Assembly (NCBI RefSeq): GCF_003019035.1
Contig: NZ_CP027447.1
DNA: 64,000 nt
Source of the DNA: Escherichia coli
GTDB lineage: Bacteria > Pseudomonadota > Gammaproteobacteria > Enterobacterales > Enterobacteriaceae
Reading direction: 5' to 3' (one strand)
How positions within the stretch are numbered: position 1 is the first letter of the stretch; every line of letters begins with the position of its first letter. The notes beneath the pieces are model-generated. The model ran no database searches, was not told the origin of the DNA, and worked only from the letters and a program-made list of their open reading frames with translations. Positions 6,361-14,567 of this stretch are shown piece by piece. The position numbers and the translations under genes were made by a program.

Positions 6361-9300
6361 TTAGTTTAAAACACTCATATGATGTTCTTTAAAATTCTCT
6401 GCCTGTGCCAGCACTCCCATATAAACATCATCATTCGCTACTGGCGGGAACTTATGCTTGTGTAGAAGAAGAATAAGTTCAACTTTTAGTTTCGCTTTAA
6501 TATCATCGCGCTTACTCCAGTCAGGATATTTCGATGTGTTGTCAACCACGCTTTTCATCTCTTTTGCCAGTGACAGCATTTTTTCATCGTCATAGGTGAA
6601 CTGATATTTATCGCGCATATGAGCAAGAATGTCGAAAAACGCTTTTTCTTCAATATCAATACCTAAATCGGCCCATGTGCCCATTTCGGTTTTAATATCA
6701 TAGATAATATCGGTCATTTCCTGACTGAATGTATCGAATTCTTCACCGTTGAGTACATCATCTTCTCGCCGCTCATTATAACGATCTATAATCGCCTGGA
6801 AGCGGCGGGTGAAGTTAATCCCTTGCAACTGGTTCACTTTCTTGAAGTCGCTGATCGCTTTTTCCAGTAATTTTTGTAATAACTGGATCTTTGTTGCCGG
6901 AAGTTTGATCTTGTTAATTCGCGCCAGATAATCTTCGTCAAAAATATCGATGGATTCCGCTTTTTTATCGCCAAGAAAATAAATTTCTTCTACGCCATCA
7001 GCTTTTAGCGCTTCTGCAATCATTTCACGAACGCGTGCATTCATCTGGGTGACATCCGGTGCGTCACCTTTCGTCAGTTTGAAAACAATTGAACGAACAG
7101 CAAGATAATAGTGAATATGATCACGTTCTGTCTGTGATAGTGCTTCACTGCCGCAGCAGACGTCGTAGGCGGCTTTCATGCGTTTAACCAGTCCCATAAA
7201 ACGACGTTCAACTTTCTGGGTACGCAGAACAAATTCCGCCGCGCGGTTGAGGCAGGATAATTGCGCTTGTGGCTCACCACTAAAATAATCCCGACTGTCA
7301 AATTCGTAAAAGACTTGCCCCAACAAATCGAGATGGTTTTTAACTTCTATTACCGATTGCTGAATATCTTCAAAGTTGGTGGCATCAATGCGGGAATACA
7401 TTGCCAGTGCCTGGTTCATCTGACTTTTAATGCCGATGTAGTCCACCACTAACCCTTTACTTTTGCCTTCCAGTTTACGGTTAACGCGAGAAATGGTCTG
7501 GATAAGATTATGTTTTTGTAAGGGTTTATCAATATAGATGGTATCCAGTTCCGGGACGTCGAAACCAGTCAGCCACATATCAACAACAATGGCAATTTTG
7601 AAATTCGATTTAGCGTTTTTGAACTGCTTATCCAGCTCTTTACGATATTCTTTTGTGCCCAGTAAATCATAAAGCGCCTCGTCGTCATCTTTACCGCGCG
7701 TCATGACCATCTTCACCATTTCTGAAGGCGGTAACTCTTTCTGCTCCTGTTCCGTCAGGACGACGCCATCGGGGGCTTGCTTCACTTCAAACCAGGTAGG
7801 GCGAATAGCTTTAAGCTGGCGGTAGAAATCCCAGGCAATTTCACGGCTGGCACAAACAAACATGGCTTTGCCTTTTACGGTGGAACCTTCGGCTACGCGT
7901 TTTTCATAATGTTTAGCAAAATCTTCCGCGAGGGCTTTTAACCGATCTTCATCACCCAGTACCGCATTCATGGTTGCGGTGGCTTTTTTGCTTTCGTCGA
8001 TTTGCCACTCATTGGTGCCTGCGTTTGCGCACTCTTCGTAATACTTTTCGACTTCTTCCAGTTTGCTGGAGTCCAGGATCACTTTAGCCGCACGGCCTTC
8101 GTACACGATGCGTACAGTGATTTCATCCTGAACGGATTCGGTCATGGTGTAACTGTCGATCACCTCACCGAAGACATCGAGCGTCGCGTCAATCGGTGTG
8201 CCGGTAAAGCCAACATAGGTGGCGTTTGGCAGTGAATCGTGCAGGTATTTCGCAAAGCCATAAGTTTTGCGCACTTTTCCGCTTTCTTTATCGACGATGA
8301 CTTTCTGGTCGAGGTTAACCTGGCTGCGATGTGCTTCGTCTGAGATGCAAATGATATTGCTGCGTTCAGAAAGGAGTTCGGTGTCTTCGGTGAATTTATG
8401 GATCGTTGTCAGGAATACACCGCCACTATTGCGTCCCGCCAGTTGATTACGCAAATCTTCACGGCTGATAACAGGAACGATGGTGTCGTCGCCAATGTAA
8501 TTTTTGGCGTTGCACATTTGCGCAGAAAGCTGATCGTCCAGATCGGTGCGGTCGGTGATCAAAACAATGGTCGGGCTGGCAAACTCCACGCTCTTCATCA
8601 AAAGACGCGTTAAAAATTGCATGGTGTAACTTTTGCCACAGCCCGTTGCGCCAAAGTAGGTGCCGCCTTTACCGTTACCGAAAGGTTTACGCGCTTGCTT
8701 GATGCTGTAATAGAGTTTGCGGGCGGCATAGTACTGCGGATATCGGCAGCAAATTTTTACTTCGTGCTTAGCTTTATCCGGGAAGCAGATAAAGTTTTTA
8801 ATCACATCCAGCAGACGTACCGGATGAAACAGCCCCTGAATCATTGAGTGCAATGACGGAATTCCGTCCTGTTCACGGTTTTCATTACCGGTGACTTTGC
8901 GCCATGAGTAAAAATATTCATAGGGCGCAAACAGGTTGCCCATCCGGTTATTAACGCCATCGCTAATAATGCAGAGCGCGTTGTAGATAAACAGTTGCGG
9001 AATATCCCGGCGGTAGCGTTTACAGAGCTGCTTCCAGGCATCACCTATACTGGCTTCCTGCTCGCGCACCGCGCTTTTAAATTCAAAGACGACCAATGGC
9101 AGACCATTGATATAGAGAATGCCGTCAGGAATACGAGTCTGATTATCTTTGCCGGAGATTTTAAGCTGGTTAACAATCTTAATCCGGTTAAGCGGCGGAT
9201 TAATATAGGAGGGCGGGAGTTCTGCCGCCTGTTGCAACGGGACATCTTCGGCGTCAAATATCTGGCGCAGTGCGGCAGGTAGATGCCGGGTGTCGAGCAA

Positions 9301-9624
9301 TTCAATATAGAGATCTTTTTGTTGCCGATCGTCGCGTTTGAACAGAAAACCATTTGCCAGCCAGCGACAAAATGTTTTGTTGCTTTCATAAAGATCGGAG
9401 GCCGGAAGCGTGGTGAACTGTTTGATCAGTCGCTGAATCTCTTCTTCAGTAATGCCATCAGGCTGGTAGCGTGCCGCTAAATAATGACGGAGATCGTCTT
9501 CGATAATGACCTGATCGAGACTTGAACGAGGGACATTATCGCCGATCAGGTGTTGATATCCCTGATCCTGTAATAGTTCAATGATCGCTTGTTCTAATTT
9601 TGCTTCACTGAAAGAGAGACTCAT
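6361..9624 (-). CDS. hsdR: Type I restriction enzyme R subunit (HsdR; SF2 helicase/translocase plus nuclease)
   Basis: 1087 aa from ATG at 9624 (track starts at TTG 9636); helicase motifs YFGATGCGKS (Walker A), ICISDEAHRSQ (DEAH), VGFTGTPI. Confidence 0.9.
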   Translation of the reverse strand: MSLSFSEAKLEQAIIELLQDQGYQHLIGDNVPRSSLDQVIIEDDLRHYLAARYQPDGITEEEIQRLIKQFTTLPASDLYESNKTFCRWLANGFLFKRDDRQQKDLYIELLDTRHLPAALRQIFDAEDVPLQQAAELPPSYINPPLNRIKIVNQLKISGKDNQTRIPDGILYINGLPLVVFEFKSAVREQEASIGDAWKQLCKRYRRDIPQLFIYNALCIISDGVNNRMGNLFAPYEYFYSWRKVTGNENREQDGIPSLHSMIQGLFHPVRLLDVIKNFICFPDKAKHEVKICCRYPQYYAARKLYYSIKQARKPFGNGKGGTYFGATGCGKSYTMQFLTRLLMKSVEFASPTIVLITDRTDLDDQLSAQMCNAKNYIGDDTIVPVISREDLRNQLAGRNSGGVFLTTIHKFTEDTELLSERSNIICISDEAHRSQVNLDQKVIVDKESGKVRKTYGFAKYLHDSLPNATYVGFTGTPIDATLDVFGEVIDSYTMTESVQDEITVRIVYEGRAAKVILDSSKLEEVEKYYEECANAGTNEWQIDESKKATATMNAVLGDEDRLKALAEDFAKHYEKRVAEGSTVKGKAMFVCASREIAWDFYRQLKAIRPTWFEVKQAPDGVVLTEQEQKELPPSEMVKMVMTRGKDDDEALYDLLGTKEYRKELDKQFKNAKSNFKIAIVVDMWLTGFDVPELDTIYIDKPLQKHNLIQTISRVNRKLEGKSKGLVVDYIGIKSQMNQALAMYSRIDATNFEDIQQSVIEVKNHLDLLGQVFYEFDSRDYFSGEPQAQLSCLNRAAEFVLRTQKVERRFMGLVKRMKAAYDVCCGSEALSQTERDHIHYYLAVRSIVFKLTKGDAPDVTQMNARVREMIAEALKADGVEEIYFLGDKKAESIDIFDEDYLARINKIKLPATKIQLLQKLLEKAISDFKKVNQLQGINFTRRFQAIIDRYNERREDDVLNGEEFDTFSQEMTDIIYDIKTEMGTWADLGIDIEEKAFFDILAHMRDKYQFTYDDEKMLSLAKEMKSVVDNTSKYPDWSKRDDIKAKLKVELILLLHKHKFPPVANDDVYMGVLAQAENFKEHHMSVLN

Positions 9625-9718: not shown

Positions 9719-11113
9719 TTATGCAGTTTCTGTATCGGTGTTGAGATCCGGAAGATCTTCCCGGGATAGCTCACCGGAGATGAGTTTCGGGAGCAGGGTG
9801 TCGCGGAGGTTGCTCAGGACTATTTGATTATTATTATGTGACTTGTCAATCCAAGGCATAACGATATTATAAAAAGTATTAATTATTTCAACATCTGGCA
9901 TAACTACATGTTCAGCCTCAAGAAAATATTTTGTCTGGAAGTTAGCGATTCCTGTACTTTGGTTTTGGTATTCCCACATTTTTCCATCGTTATATATTTT
10001 ATTGAGGTGTAAACTAATTATTAGCCCTATCTCTATAGATAACGGCTCAAACTTGCGACAAAAACTAGCAGGTTCAATAATACCCCCTAATCGACTTATA
10101 ATCTGTTCAGTCATGAAAATTGAACGGCCAGTTGACTGCGTTGGACTTCCTCCTGAAACTTCTATTATAATATCACCATTATTAATTTTTCTTTTTTCGA
10201 GTTTTTTGGGTTCTACCCATCTACATGGGGCAGAACTCATTTTCCCTGAAATTAACTCCGGGATATCAGTACCGCGCACTATCACTGCTTGAATTGTATG
10301 CTTTTCATCTCTGGAATCACTCCCCCAGTCACCACCAATTGTATTTTTTAGTAAACTATTAACATTTGAAAACTTCCAACCTTTAGGAATTAAACCTAAC
10401 TCCGTTTCTTCAAATTCACTTGGGAAAAGCGAGCGGATTTCCGCCGGAAGCGGTTTAAAATCTGTACTATTACGTACTTTTTGACGCAACTCGGCACGAG
10501 ATTGCAGAGCCTCCGGGATTGGATTTCCTGCATCCAGAGCGTTATCAACCACCGGATCAAAATCCACAAACCAGGATTTGAACAGGGTTTGGGACATTTG
10601 TTCTAATGACTTATTTATTACTTCATTGGATTTTAGCTTACTAAATATAAGAGTGTTTGTTTTTGCGATATGTTGGCAATATTTATCTGGTGCAAGATTA
10701 AATTCATAATCTAATATGGCTGTTTTATCACCCCTTGGCATTTTGGTGCCTTTGGATGTTAAAACAGTATGTTCGATGAATTTTTGATCCATTAATACTG
10801 ATAGAATATAATTAGAATTAATATTTTTTTTAGGACGGAATACAATTACATCGTTAGAACAGCCACCAGTTCGATCTGCAAGCCATAGTTTTTTAAAATA
10901 TGTTCTGATATTCGAGAATAAAATATCTCCAGAATGAAATTTTGTTATTTTCCCTGTGCTAGGTTTACTATTTGCTATTGATATACCTCCAAAATTGGTA
11001 AGCATATTTTCAGTTGATATGTAATCGCAAAGACTAATTTGCGATACATCAACTTTAGTAGTGATGATATCTACAACTTCTTTAAGTTTTATTTTCTCCC
11101 ACTTACTCCCCAT
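9719..11113 (-). CDS. hsdS: Type I R-M specificity subunit (HsdS), two target-recognition domains
   Basis: 464 aa from ATG at 11113 (MGSKWEKIKLKEVVDII...), overlapping the hsdM stop by 11 nt; TRD-like motif GDILFSNIRTYFKK; strongly AT-rich DNA by eye. Confidence 0.85.
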   Translation of the reverse strand: MGSKWEKIKLKEVVDIITTKVDVSQISLCDYISTENMLTNFGGISIANSKPSTGKITKFHSGDILFSNIRTYFKKLWLADRTGGCSNDVIVFRPKKNINSNYILSVLMDQKFIEHTVLTSKGTKMPRGDKTAILDYEFNLAPDKYCQHIAKTNTLIFSKLKSNEVINKSLEQMSQTLFKSWFVDFDPVVDNALDAGNPIPEALQSRAELRQKVRNSTDFKPLPAEIRSLFPSEFEETELGLIPKGWKFSNVNSLLKNTIGGDWGSDSRDEKHTIQAVIVRGTDIPELISGKMSSAPCRWVEPKKLEKRKINNGDIIIEVSGGSPTQSTGRSIFMTEQIISRLGGIIEPASFCRKFEPLSIEIGLIISLHLNKIYNDGKMWEYQNQSTGIANFQTKYFLEAEHVVMPDVEIINTFYNIVMPWIDKSHNNNQIVLSNLRDTLLPKLISGELSREDLPDLNTDTETA

Positions 11114-12722
11114 AACCCAGCACCTCCAGATTCTGGCGAATCGCACGATCCAGTTCTTCCGCCTGCTTCATCTGCTCAAACAACGTCTTCGACAATTCGC
11201 GCATTTTCGTCTCAAATGCCACGCCGTCCTCTTCCTGCTCGGCTGCACCTACATAGCGGCCCGGTGTCAGAACGTAGTCGTTATCTTTAATGTCTTGCAG
11301 GGTCGCAACTTTGCAGAAGCCAGCCTGGTCTTCATATTTTTCCAGCTTGCTGTCACCACGCGCAATCCGTGCAGCCAGTTCTTCCGGCGTACTGCGCCAG
11401 GCATGGTAGGTATCGGCGATGGTGGCAATATCTTCCGTTGTTAACTCTTTAGTTGTGCGGCTAATCATGGTGCCGAGGTTACGCGCATCAATAAACAGCG
11501 TCTCGCCCTGACGATCACGATAACCTTTGGCCGGATCGGCAGCCTTCGATTTGGTCATAAACCATAAACACACCGGGATCTGCGTGGTGTAAAACAACTG
11601 ACCTGGCAGAGCGATCATGCAGTCAATCAGATCATTTTCGATCATCTGTGCACGGATCTCGCCTTCACCGCTGGTGTTAGAACTCATCGAACCGTTTGCC
11701 AGCACAAAACCTGCTGTGCCGTTAGCCGACAGCTTGGAGAGCATATGCAAAATCCAGCCGTAGTTGGCGTTACCGGTTGGCGGCATACGATACCCAGCAA
11801 AACGTGGGTCTTTGGTTAATTCGGCTTCATTACGCCAGTCTTTCAGGTTGAACGGCGGGTTCGCCAGAATGTAGTCGGCTTTCAGGTCCGGGTGCTGGTC
11901 GCTAAAGAAAGTGTTTGCCGGTCGTTCGCCGAGGTTAGCTGAAAGACCGCGAATGGCGAGGTTCATTTTTGCCAGTTTATACGTCGTGGCAGTCAGTTCC
12001 TGACCATACAGCGCGATATCACGGCTTTTACCCTGATGGCTCTCGACAAACTTCACCGACTGCACGAACATCCCCGCCGAACCGCAGCACGGGTCATAAA
12101 TTTTGCCCTGAAAGGGTTCGAGCATTTCAGTTAACAGCGTAACCACACATTTAGGCGTGTAGAACTCACCACCGCCTTTGCCTTCAGTTGCGGCAAACTT
12201 ACCGAGGAAGTATTCGTAAACGCGTCCGACCAGGTCTTCTTTCGATAACGTTTCAACGTCAGTTTCGTGTGCCAGCGTTTCGATGTTGTCGATGGTATCA
12301 ATCAGTGACGCCAGTTTTTTGGTTTCCAGATTCTGACGGCTGAAGTAGTTGTCTGGCAGCGCGCCTTTCAGGGTTGGGTTACGTTTCTCAATGGTCGAGA
12401 GGGCGGTGTCAATACGAACCGCAATATCGTCCTGTTTGGCATTTTGTTTGATAAACGACCAGCGCGCCTCTTCCGGCAGGTAGAAAATGTTGTCCTGCTG
12501 GTAGAACACTTCCATCTCAAGGAAGTCAGCTTGCCCATCGGCAATCATTTTTTTGCGGCGTGCTTCAAACTTATCGCTGATGAATTTCAGGAACACGAGG
12601 CTCAACACCACGTGCTTGTATTCGGAGGACTCAACGCTACCGCGAAGCTGGTTTGCTGTATCCCATAATGTTTCTTCAAAGCCTTTCTTTGCTTTGGCTT
12701 TTTTAGTTGGTGCTTTGGCCAT
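11103..12722 (-). CDS. hsdM: Type I R-M N6-adenine DNA methyltransferase subunit (HsdM)
   Basis: 539 aa; SAM-binding IYDPCCGSAGMF and catalytic NPPF (ILANPPFNLKDW). Confidence 0.9.
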   Translation of the reverse strand: MAKAPTKKAKAKKGFEETLWDTANQLRGSVESSEYKHVVLSLVFLKFISDKFEARRKKMIADGQADFLEMEVFYQQDNIFYLPEEARWSFIKQNAKQDDIAVRIDTALSTIEKRNPTLKGALPDNYFSRQNLETKKLASLIDTIDNIETLAHETDVETLSKEDLVGRVYEYFLGKFAATEGKGGGEFYTPKCVVTLLTEMLEPFQGKIYDPCCGSAGMFVQSVKFVESHQGKSRDIALYGQELTATTYKLAKMNLAIRGLSANLGERPANTFFSDQHPDLKADYILANPPFNLKDWRNEAELTKDPRFAGYRMPPTGNANYGWILHMLSKLSANGTAGFVLANGSMSSNTSGEGEIRAQMIENDLIDCMIALPGQLFYTTQIPVCLWFMTKSKAADPAKGYRDRQGETLFIDARNLGTMISRTTKELTTEDIATIADTYHAWRSTPEELAARIARGDSKLEKYEDQAGFCKVATLQDIKDNDYVLTPGRYVGAAEQEEDGVAFETKMRELSKTLFEQMKQAEELDRAIRQNLEVLGYGE

Positions 12723-12785
12723 GATGAACTCTGTTCAGATAAATTGGGTCGCTATTGTAATGGTAGAGACGGCAGATTTCGCCCT

Positions 12786-13952
12786 TTAATCCATCTCCAG
12801 CTCATCAAACAACTGCAAATCTACATCCAGCAATTCCACTGCATTGCTGCGGCGAATGCCGACGTTATTTTCGATTAACAGTTCCAGTAAGCGATCGCCG
12901 TCGATAAGCGTAATGGGCGCGGCCCCCGGAAAGAGCGCCGCTTCTGCACATTTCGCTGCAAATTTCCCGGTGGTGATGAGCGTACCGCGAATGGCCTTGT
13001 GGTAAGGCAACGCTCCGCGCAACTGGTCGATATACGGTCGAGTGATGGTGTTCTGCATTCTTTTGACCTGCACCACTTCGGTAATAGTGGTGATGCCGAC
13101 CTGCACCTGACCAATCACGTCCACACCTTTATCGCCTGAGGCTTTGGTCACTTCGACCTGCTCGTAGCCCATTGCTTCCAGTAATTGACCGACCAGTTGT
13201 TCAAATTTGTACGGGTTCATCGTGCTGATTTGTTCGCGCAGCAGCTCTTTTTGCTGTTCGTTATAGCGTTTTACCGCTTCCAACAGCTCTTTACGCGGAT
13301 CGCTTTTTCGTGCAGGCAACGCTTTTCCAAGCCAGGCGCGCCCGGTATCGGTGATGCGATAGCTCATGCCTTCACGGTTAACCATGTCACGGTCGATAAG
13401 GTTATAGAGACGGGAGTAGAGCGTGCTTTTCACTGAACTTGCTGACGCGAATTTCGAATGCTGATGCAAAAAGGCCTGCCATTCCGGCAATAAATCGGCG
13501 CGGCGCGACATTTCCCGGCCAGCCAGCAGCTCAAGCAGTTGCAGAATGCCTTCCTGGTCGTCCAGTGAACGCAGCGTTTTTTCGTCATCTTGCAGGAATT
13601 TTTGCCCGCGCGAGGTGGGCTGCCAGGTATCGTCTGGCGTGCTTTCCATCAGCTCAAACTGGGGATAGTTGAGGAATAAGTAGCAGCCGTAGCTGTGGCG
13701 CGGGTTCAATATGTGATTATCGGTATCCCAAATACGACGGGCGATGTCGGCATCTTCACCCGTTAAGCGTTCGCTGATCCACAGGTCAGGTTCCGACCAG
13801 TCAACGGGTTTTTGCGGCGTTCCGGTTTGCTCGTGAATGGCAGTAATCATATTGCGCACCGCTTTCAGGGAATAGCCTGAGACGGCTTTCATCATAGCCT
13901 TAACTTGCGCATAGGTAGGAAAAAGCGGGGTAATGACTTTGTAGTTTTTCAC
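12786..13952 (-). CDS. Mrr-family (Type IV, modification-dependent) restriction endonuclease-like protein with extended N-terminal region
   Basis: 388 aa, GTG start at 13952 with AAGGGA SD; C-terminal region (GDKGVDVIG...VVQVKRMQNTITRPYIDQL...LITTGKF) resembles the K-12 Mrr catalytic domain as I recall it; N-terminal 250 aa not recognisably Mrr-like. Confidence 0.7.
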   Translation of the reverse strand: MKNYKVITPLFPTYAQVKAMMKAVSGYSLKAVRNMITAIHEQTGTPQKPVDWSEPDLWISERLTGEDADIARRIWDTDNHILNPRHSYGCYLFLNYPQFELMESTPDDTWQPTSRGQKFLQDDEKTLRSLDDQEGILQLLELLAGREMSRRADLLPEWQAFLHQHSKFASASSVKSTLYSRLYNLIDRDMVNREGMSYRITDTGRAWLGKALPARKSDPRKELLEAVKRYNEQQKELLREQISTMNPYKFEQLVGQLLEAMGYEQVEVTKASGDKGVDVIGQVQVGITTITEVVQVKRMQNTITRPYIDQLRGALPYHKAIRGTLITTGKFAAKCAEAALFPGAAPITLIDGDRLLELLIENNVGIRRSNAVELLDVDLQLFDELEMD

Positions 13953-14148
13953 GGTAATCCCTTAACGACAGCGAGGTGTTTAGTGTGCCATGTCAGGCGA
14001 GAAATTCTATTGGATGAATCAAGTCCAACTCACACATTGTCAATTTCATGGTTGATTATTCGAAACGTGATGCTATTTCCAACATCAACGCTATAATTGC
14101 AGAATAATTGTACATACATTTTTGTATATACAATTAGGGATGGCAACT

Positions 14149-14268
14149 ATGCCAATGGAGTTTGAATGGGATGCAAATAAGGCCAAAGGTAATCGGGTGA
14201 AACATGGCATCCGCTTTGAAGATGCGGTGTTAGTGTTTGATGATCCACAACGAACGGAATCGCTATGA
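14149..14268 (+). pseudogene. brnT: brnT (DUF497 toxin) remnant with internal deletion
   Basis: MPMEFEWDANKAKGNRVKHGIRFEDAVLVFDDP matches the BrnT N-terminus, stops after 39 codons; a BrnT-like C-terminus (NERNRYEHG-stop, ending 14278) is in the +1 frame. Confidence 0.55.
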
Positions 14269-14567
14269 GCATGGTTAAACATAAACGAGGGACCTCCTCT
14301 ACACTCGATGTGCAGCATGAGGCCGAACTGAAGGCGCTGGCGAATAAATCCGACGAAGATATTGATTACAGTGATATCCCACCTTCCAGCGATGAGCAAT
14401 GGTCTAACGCAGAACGCGGTAAGTTTTATCGGCCATTGAAAACTCAGGCCTCGGTGCGTATTGATTCTGATGTGATGGAATGGTTGAAGCGACCAGGTAA
14501 AGGCTATCAAACTCGCCTGAACGCAATTTTACGTGAAGCGATGCTGCGCGATCAGAACAAAAAATAA
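14265..14567 (+). CDS. brnA: BrnA-like antitoxin (ribbon-helix-helix / DUF4415 family)
   Basis: 100 aa; C-terminal ...VRIDSDVMEWLKRPGKGYQTRLNAILREAM matches BrnA signature; start overlaps the brnT remnant in typical TA fashion (alternative ATG at 14271). Confidence 0.6.
   Translation: MSMVKHKRGTSSTLDVQHEAELKALANKSDEDIDYSDIPPSSDEQWSNAERGKFYRPLKTQASVRIDSDVMEWLKRPGKGYQTRLNAILREAMLRDQNKK

Follow-up and report, generated by a model that had tools for sequence, protein, structure and literature searches.

An Mrr-family nuclease gene upstream of hsdM in Escherichia coli encodes a predicted tandem winged-helix module that recurs with other effector domains

We analyzed a 64,000-nucleotide stretch of Escherichia coli contig NZ_CP027447.1 (the whole stretch is called the window here, and feature coordinates refer to it), in which a gene for a 388-residue nuclease precedes, on the same strand, the hsdM, hsdS and hsdR genes of a restriction-modification system of Type I. 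The protein is probably a single-chain, nucleoside triphosphate (NTP)-independent Type IV (modification-dependent) endonuclease of the Mrr family, and its gene an alternative allele of mrr in the immigration control region (ICR) of E. coli. Its N-terminal 210 to 215 residues, confidently predicted to form two winged-helix domains in tandem, are a module outside known Pfam families that is found fused to several other effectors. The enzyme class is familiar and the family has already been catalogued as a defence candidate; new is an Mrr nuclease with a different, undescribed, putative reader module.

Results

A C-terminal Mrr nuclease domain with intact catalytic residues

The C-terminal part of the protein matches Pfam Mrr_cat (PF04471) with an E value of 3.8e-29 (model positions 2-115 of 115), far beyond chance. 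A preliminary description of the window, made from the sequence, had proposed an Mrr catalytic domain here, and the D...QxK residues are intact. In a BLAST alignment, similarity to Mrr of E. coli K-12 is confined to residues 216-383 (31% identity over 173 aligned positions), where D278, Q295 and K297 pair with D203, Q219 and K221 of the K-12 protein. These residues of K-12 Mrr reportedly have a catalytic role. None of the three varies among 38 homologues with identities down to 50%, and the same is true of the GDKGVD and EVVQVKR motifs around them. The peptides GDKGVDVIG, VVQVKRMQNTITRP, LITTGKF and GMSYRITDTGRAWLG are all found in the translation.

A Foldseek search of the PDB with the full-length model gave the nuclease domains of MspJI and AspBHI as the best matches to this domain (E about 1e-6). 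By sequence (phmmer), the PDB yielded a single weak match, of MspJI to the nuclease domain (E 0.019). A secondary Pfam match to NA-iREase1, an "inactive restriction endonuclease" family, was also found (E 1.7e-13) and is much weaker than that to Mrr_cat; the NCBIfam search of the nuclease returned sub-threshold noise only. A long helix (residues 219-244) joins the nuclease domain to the N-terminal module.

A predicted N-terminal tandem winged-helix module

AlphaFold2 modelling of the N-terminal part alone, from a 40-sequence alignment, gave a predicted local distance difference test (pLDDT) score of 96.9 and a predicted template modelling (pTM) score of 0.92. The model confidently predicts two winged-helix domains in tandem, the first preceded by two helices, and so bears out an earlier guess of tandem winged-helix-like segments. 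The N-terminal region is the better-conserved half of the protein, with invariant or almost invariant motifs such as QTGTPQxPVDW..PD.WI.ERL and NPRH.YG. The most conserved motifs of the family are assigned to its first winged-helix domain: GTPQxPVDW..PD.WI..RL and, at the start of the third helix, NPRH.YG. Invariant in one alignment (A1) are Q42, G44, P46, D51, W52, P55, W58, R62, L63, A71, W75, N83, P84, R85 and G89, and P55, A71, N83 and P84 remain so in a more divergent one (A2).

The module differs from the N-terminus of K-12 Mrr, to which the preliminary description could not match it. The Pfam scan found nothing significant before residue 150, just weak winged-helix matches at 151-208, and no Mrr_N (PF14338); comparison of the N-terminal profile with K-12 Mrr by hhalign gave a probability of 6.6%, with no homology to Mrr_N detected. 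K-12 Mrr has a single winged helix of about 90 residues (Mrr_N) and a total length of 304 residues, in line with the preliminary description, and only the 173 C-terminal positions align. The 388-residue protein thus lies outside the EcoKMrr orthologue group.

Foldseek against AFDB50 found unannotated family members only. The preliminary description had called the N-terminal region unrecognised, which holds for Pfam, where it has no significant match, and is too strong given that PADLOC has a full-length model: residues 1-386 align to profile positions 1-383 of 390 of PDLC04796, one of the PDC-S02 models, with an E value of 2.1e-207. The nuclease is a member of PDC-S02, a phage-defence candidate defined bioinformatically, whose remaining three hidden Markov models (HMMs) match the Mrr_cat part alone. 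Hundreds of database entries for the family bear the name "restriction endonuclease", and no functional or domain description of PDC-S02 was found in the literature.

The module recurs with other effectors

A phmmer search with residues 1-215 against 1.84 billion representatives gave 380 matches, nearly all spanning residues ~5-210 as a single stretch. Among the best 150 of these, Mrr_cat lies behind the module in most. Other effectors in this position are AAA_5/McrB_lid, GmrSD_N/DUF1524, HNH, KAP NTPase, an NsnA-like domain and BrxC-like regions; the McrB-type AAA_5 GTPase with McrB_lid was fused to the module in 7 of 22 proteins examined, and PLD in one AFDB match. In one locus (L088, 949-4207) the end of the gene for a module-AAA_5-McrB_lid protein is overlapped by a McrC gene, after which comes an Eco57I-type methyltransferase gene. 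The N-terminal domain of E. coli McrB is DNA-binding, and the module holds the corresponding position in the L088 protein. In some family members the module is itself preceded by an extra Mrr_N or HARE-HTH domain.

This fusion pattern resembles that of a Type IV DNA-reader domain, and it is from this architecture, by analogy, that we propose a role in reading DNA modification. The combinatorial pairing of readers and effectors is a pattern of Type IV enzymes (PMC12707154), in which winged-helix domains are used combinatorially as modification readers (PMC11037411).

One metagenomic protein of 637 residues (P0121) has two modules in series (residues 2-207 and 243-447) and then one Mrr_cat. Truncated alleles that encode only the N-terminal ~206-244 residues were also seen (B7MMP1 of E. 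coli S88, 206 residues, and clusters P0072 and P0077), some of them common (clusters of 133 and 46 member sequences). These are possibly pseudogenes or stand-alone reader proteins.

Prevalence in E. coli and linkage to Type I genes

The full gene is present in 879 of 5426 complete E. coli genomes (~16%), at 95-99% identity, and 878 of these 879 copies retain the same junction with hsdM. The K-12-type mrr occurs in 944 of the 5426. The two mrr alleles are about equally common in the species and look like alternatives for one slot adjacent to yjiA. Carriers include ATCC 25922 and Nissle 1917, in which the order is brnTA, the nuclease gene, hsdM, hsdS, hsdR and symE. Plasmids gave 3 matches in 72,556 records; the gene is thus not a plasmid trait.

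We examined linkage in 59 full-length loci from species representatives, using HsdM, HsdS and HsdR seeds from four Type I families. The loci span Proteobacteria, Chloroflexi, Bacteroidetes, Firmicutes, Deinococcota, Gemmatimonadetes, Planctomycetes and Actinobacteria. An hsd gene is directly adjacent on the same strand in 23 of them, with several Type I families represented, and is nearby in roughly half if convergent, divergent and within-2-kb cases are counted. With X for the nuclease gene, six co-directional arrangements were found: X-M-S-R (7), X-R-M-S (2), R-X-M-S (10), M-S-R-X (2), M-S-X(-R) (2) and R-S-M-X (1). In the R-X-M-S arrangement the nuclease gene is clearly intra-operonic; in Thiocystis, for example, the called genes leave 5 bp after hsdR and 28 bp before hsdM. 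Three loci come after BREX genes and one (L064) after a Type IIG-like methyltransferase.

About half of the 59 loci lack hsd genes within 10 kb. These include two enterobacterial ICR loci (L011 and L016) in which the nuclease gene has no methyltransferase within that distance. Because the gene is found alone in this way, we conclude that it does not depend on hsd. Where Type I genes are missing, clustering of the neighbouring open reading frames revealed no partner family that recurs.

Several loci had other features of note. In Modicisalibacter ilicicola (L021, 9683-10000), the Mrr-like gene has immediately upstream of it an in-frame stretch that matches Kushneria HsdM (E 7e-39), and the neighbours are BREX genes (PglZ, BrxD, BrxHI). 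The stretch looks like an hsdM 3' remnant, either carried with a moved cassette or left by replacement of a Type I system. A gene with a TIR_2 domain lies between hsdS and hsdM of the Type I operon in Kushneria (L004, 5520-6482), and an MNT/HepT toxin-antitoxin pair follows hsdM in that of Thiocystis (L006, 11266-11920).

The gap to hsdM and transcription

The nuclease gene begins with GTG, 5 nt downstream of a Shine-Dalgarno-like AAGGGA, and ends 63 bp before hsdM, as first described. The terminator scan found no intrinsic-terminator-like site on the minus strand in this gap, in agreement with the earlier reading of the sequence, and a sigma-70 consensus scan gave no promoter match within it on the coding strand. 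We aligned the gap from six enterobacterial genera. Escherichia, Klebsiella, Enterobacter and Pluralibacter share a conserved TACAAT box that lies 31 nt ahead of the hsdM ATG, and the sequence upstream of the box is variable. In Yokenella, the Type I system that follows the nuclease gene is a different one, and the intervening gap contains TGTATAAT. Because TACAAT is conserved while the sequence upstream varies, the box is probably the -10 element of a promoter belonging to hsdM itself.

Two candidate sigma-70-like promoters lie 100-190 nt upstream of the GTG (9/12 consensus each), a number of matches not above shuffled expectation. Read-through from the nuclease gene into hsdM is plausible, and one obligatory transcript is not established. 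The preliminary description had suggested a co-transcribed composite of Type IV and Type I defence. Linkage to Type I genes is confirmed and extends well beyond the window; obligatory co-transcription is unsupported, given the conserved TACAAT.

Setting of the gene in the window

The window is 100% identical over the query to a record of E. coli SCU-301 (NZ_CP051751), in which RefSeq annotates the same coordinates as "restriction endonuclease" (WP_000800829.1). Downstream of the nuclease gene, on the same strand, are hsdM, hsdS and hsdR (order M-S-R) and symE; upstream are a brnT remnant, brnA, yjiA and btsT. The locus is the ICR of E. coli, at the slot adjacent to yjiA. In K-12 this slot is occupied by mrr, which is divergent from hsdR, as the preliminary description stated. 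Features and coordinates are given in Table 1.

Table 1. Features of the nuclease gene and the adjoining Type I genes in the window (NZ_CP027447.1).
Feature	Coordinates	Strand	Evidence or remark
Mrr-family nuclease gene, 388 aa (predicted tandem winged-helix module, linker helix, Mrr_cat)	12786..13952	-	Open reading frame list, sequence, RefSeq annotation, PADLOC PDC-S02 match
N-terminal module, residues 1-215, conserved unit recurring fused to other effectors	13308..13952	-	phmmer, AlphaFold2
First winged-helix-like domain (predicted), residues ~50-120	13593..13805	-	Secondary structure H55-62, H65-76, H84-95, E102-104, E110-112
Second winged-helix domain (predicted), residues ~124-211, PadR/MarR-like	13320..13583	-	
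Mrr_cat (PD-QxK) nuclease domain, residues 243-359	12876..13226	-	Pfam PF04471, Foldseek, K-12 Mrr identity
Codons of predicted catalytic residues D278 (13119-13121), Q295 (13068-13070), K297 (13062-13064)	13062..13121	-	Alignment with K-12 Mrr
Gap between nuclease gene and hsdM, 63 bp	12723..12785	-	Sequence, terminator scan, gap alignment
TACAAT box in gap (probable -10 element)	12759-12754	-	31 nt before hsdM ATG; gap alignment
Two candidate sigma-70-like promoter matches	14055..14146	-	100-190 nt upstream of GTG; 9/12 consensus each
hsdM, 539 aa, non-IA Type I family	11103..12722	-	PADLOC MTase_I, E 8e-193; RefSeq
hsdS	9719..11113	-	PADLOC Specificity_I, E 1e-135; start per RefSeq, mapped from L001 annotation
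hsdR	6361..9624	-	PADLOC REase_I, 1719 bits; start per RefSeq/L001 annotation

HsdM of the window is 24% identical to HsdM of EcoKI, and hsdS overlaps the end of hsdM by 11 nt. The ICR is reported to hold Type IA, IB and ID systems (PMC12707154). From this and the 24% identity to the IA enzyme, Type ID is a tentative label for the system in the window. The GC content of the hsdS region (9800-11000) is 0.36, compared with ~0.5 in the flanking hsdM and hsdR, which would fit exchange of target-recognition domains. According to the annotation of the identical record, the interval from yjiA to the nuclease gene holds a truncated brnT toxin remnant (14149-14250, plus strand) next to an intact brnA antitoxin gene (14265-14567, plus strand); the brnTA pair is intact at the same position in Nissle 1917.

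Discussion

Proposed function

We predict that the tandem winged-helix module binds DNA and reads a base modification that the host itself does not make. The linker helix would couple the module to the PD-QxK nuclease, which would cut nearby. The analogy to K-12 Mrr and MspJI suggests that the active form is probably an oligomer. The target would be something other than Dam, Dcm or resident Type I N6-methyladenine (m6A) methylation, because those are present in the hosts of the gene. A layout of reader plus Mrr_cat is typical of modification-dependent enzymes (PMC12707154), and the occurrence of the gene without a methyltransferase within 10 kb (L011, L016) indicates that it is not toxic alone, as expected of such an enzyme. 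The gene probably travels, in cassette form, with systems that tell self from non-self by methylation (Type I in most cases, BREX in some), and the pair would then cover both unmodified invaders and those that escape via modified DNA. Transcription would start in the promoter region upstream of the nuclease gene and probably continue into hsdM, which likely also has a promoter of its own.

EcoKMrr is the closest known enzyme by location and nuclease domain. Both proteins are single chains with a winged-helix-type N-terminus and a C-terminal PD-QxK Mrr_cat, and both genes occupy the yjiA-adjacent ICR slot beside a Type I system. The gene described here differs in encoding a ~210-residue predicted tandem module rather than one winged helix, and in lying upstream of, and co-directional with, the hsdM of a non-IA M-S-R system rather than divergent from hsdR. 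PDC-S02 (PDLC04796) is the same protein family, matched at full length. The combination of a winged-helix reader with interchangeable nuclease or NTPase effectors recalls DpnI, HhiV4I and the wH-HNH as well as the wH-GIY-YIG enzymes (wH, winged helix), and Helbrecht et al. (2024; PMC11037411) mention wH-Mrr_cat-NTPase and NTD-wH-NTPase/McrC forms. The likeness is one of design: the module consists of a constant pair of winged helices and has conserved motifs of its own, and those enzymes read Dam-type G6mATC, which would be lethal in Dam+ E. coli. MspJI and AspBHI share the reader-plus-Mrr_cat layout and are the best structural matches of the nuclease domain, but their reader is an SRA-like beta-barrel that flips 5-methylcytosine or 5-hydroxymethylcytosine, not a pair of winged helices.

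Alternative explanations

The frequent contact with Type I genes could also be explained by a guardian nuclease resembling PrrC of the EcoprrI Type IC locus, one that is held inactive by, or cooperates with, the Type I or BREX complex and is released upon phage inhibition (e.g., by Ocr- or Stp-like proteins) to degrade DNA as a back-up or abortive response. PrrC shows that a nuclease gene can be embedded within a Type I locus (PMC3874165, PMC12707154), and an intimate association would suit the 10 of 59 loci in which the gene lies between hsdR and hsdM with gaps of roughly 0-30 bp, the five other adjacent arrangements with different Type I families, the copies at the end of BREX operons and the near-universal hsdM junction in E. 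coli. We nevertheless consider this explanation unlikely. A PrrC-like nuclease should always be inside a Type I locus, yet in about half of the loci, L011 and L016 among them, neither Type I nor BREX genes lie within 10 kb, and the partners that do occur come from BREX and from Type I families unrelated to one another, a mixture that speaks against a specific protein-protein interface. The module is, moreover, common to enzymes of the McrBC, GmrSD and HNH types, which do without a Type I partner, and Type IV genes are already known to form independent, complementary defences beside Type I or BREX systems (the K-12 ICR; BrxU). PrrC itself, a tRNA anticodon nuclease of the ABC-ATPase type that the T4 Stp peptide activates, has no sequence or fold relation to the protein studied here.

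Two further explanations seem less probable still. If the nuclease cut unmodified DNA and were protected by an adjacent m6A methyltransferase, acting as an extra restriction subunit, its recurrent adjacency to m6A-forming systems (Type I, BREX and the Type IIG-like methyltransferase of L064) would be accounted for. Such a modification-blocked enzyme would be lethal in the many genomes where the gene is alone with no methyltransferase nearby, and its highly conserved reader module would have to serve partners of diverse specificity (variable hsdS); the enzyme layout noted above is also that of modification-dependent enzymes. We therefore think this very improbable, and give equally little credence to a decaying relic whose role is mainly DNA-binding, for example as an hsd regulator or nucleoid-associated factor with a vestigial nuclease. 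The NA-iREase1 match, the truncated alleles (E. coli S88, P0072, P0077) and the fact that in vitro activity has never been reported even for K-12 Mrr (PMC12707154) would fit a relic, but the catalytic residues are all invariant across phyla, the Mrr_cat match is far stronger, and a full-length open reading frame is maintained at high identity in all 879 E. coli genomes that carry it.

Several points weigh against a modification-dependent Mrr enzyme as the preferred explanation. In the Pfam, structure and hhalign comparisons the module had no detectable homology to any proven modification reader, and the extra Mrr_N or HARE-HTH domains in some family members mean that it might not be the primary reader. 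Frequent embedding in Type I operons, with gaps of 0-30 bp, could indicate a tie closer than complementarity. One PDC-S02 representative, described in a preprint, gave E. coli B no protection against T4, T5 and T7, although PDC-S02 spans four HMMs and this may be another sub-family. The literature on PDC-S02, WP_000800829.1, hsd-embedded Mrr and Nissle restriction yielded no characterisation, with Sibley & Raleigh (2004) and Titheradge (2001), which possibly describe the allele, not covered. A preprint on embedded defences was considered as a description of the gene and rejected, as it concerns Hma systems.

Significance

A broader proposal, which we make tentatively and rate at slightly less than an even chance, is that the ~210-residue module is a previously undescribed, widely shared DNA-modification reader in Mrr-, McrBC-, GmrSD-, HNH- and PLD-type Type IV enzymes across many phyla, and that the E. 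coli member is a second "Mrr", with a new specificity, in about one sixth of strains. If so, the protein would be a candidate tool enzyme and also a hidden barrier to DNA transfer. The gene is present in a substantial minority of complete E. coli genomes (~16%), including those of Nissle 1917, a probiotic, and ATCC 25922, a reference strain, and, if active, would pose a so far unrecognised obstacle to transformation, conjugation and phage therapy in such carriers. Once defined, the ligand of the module would give the specificity of a whole set of Type IV systems and could provide a reagent for mapping a DNA modification. The recurrent insertion of the gene into Type I and BREX operons would be a clean example of paired modification-blocked and modification-dependent defence, and could be used to test co-inheritance versus functional coupling of the two.

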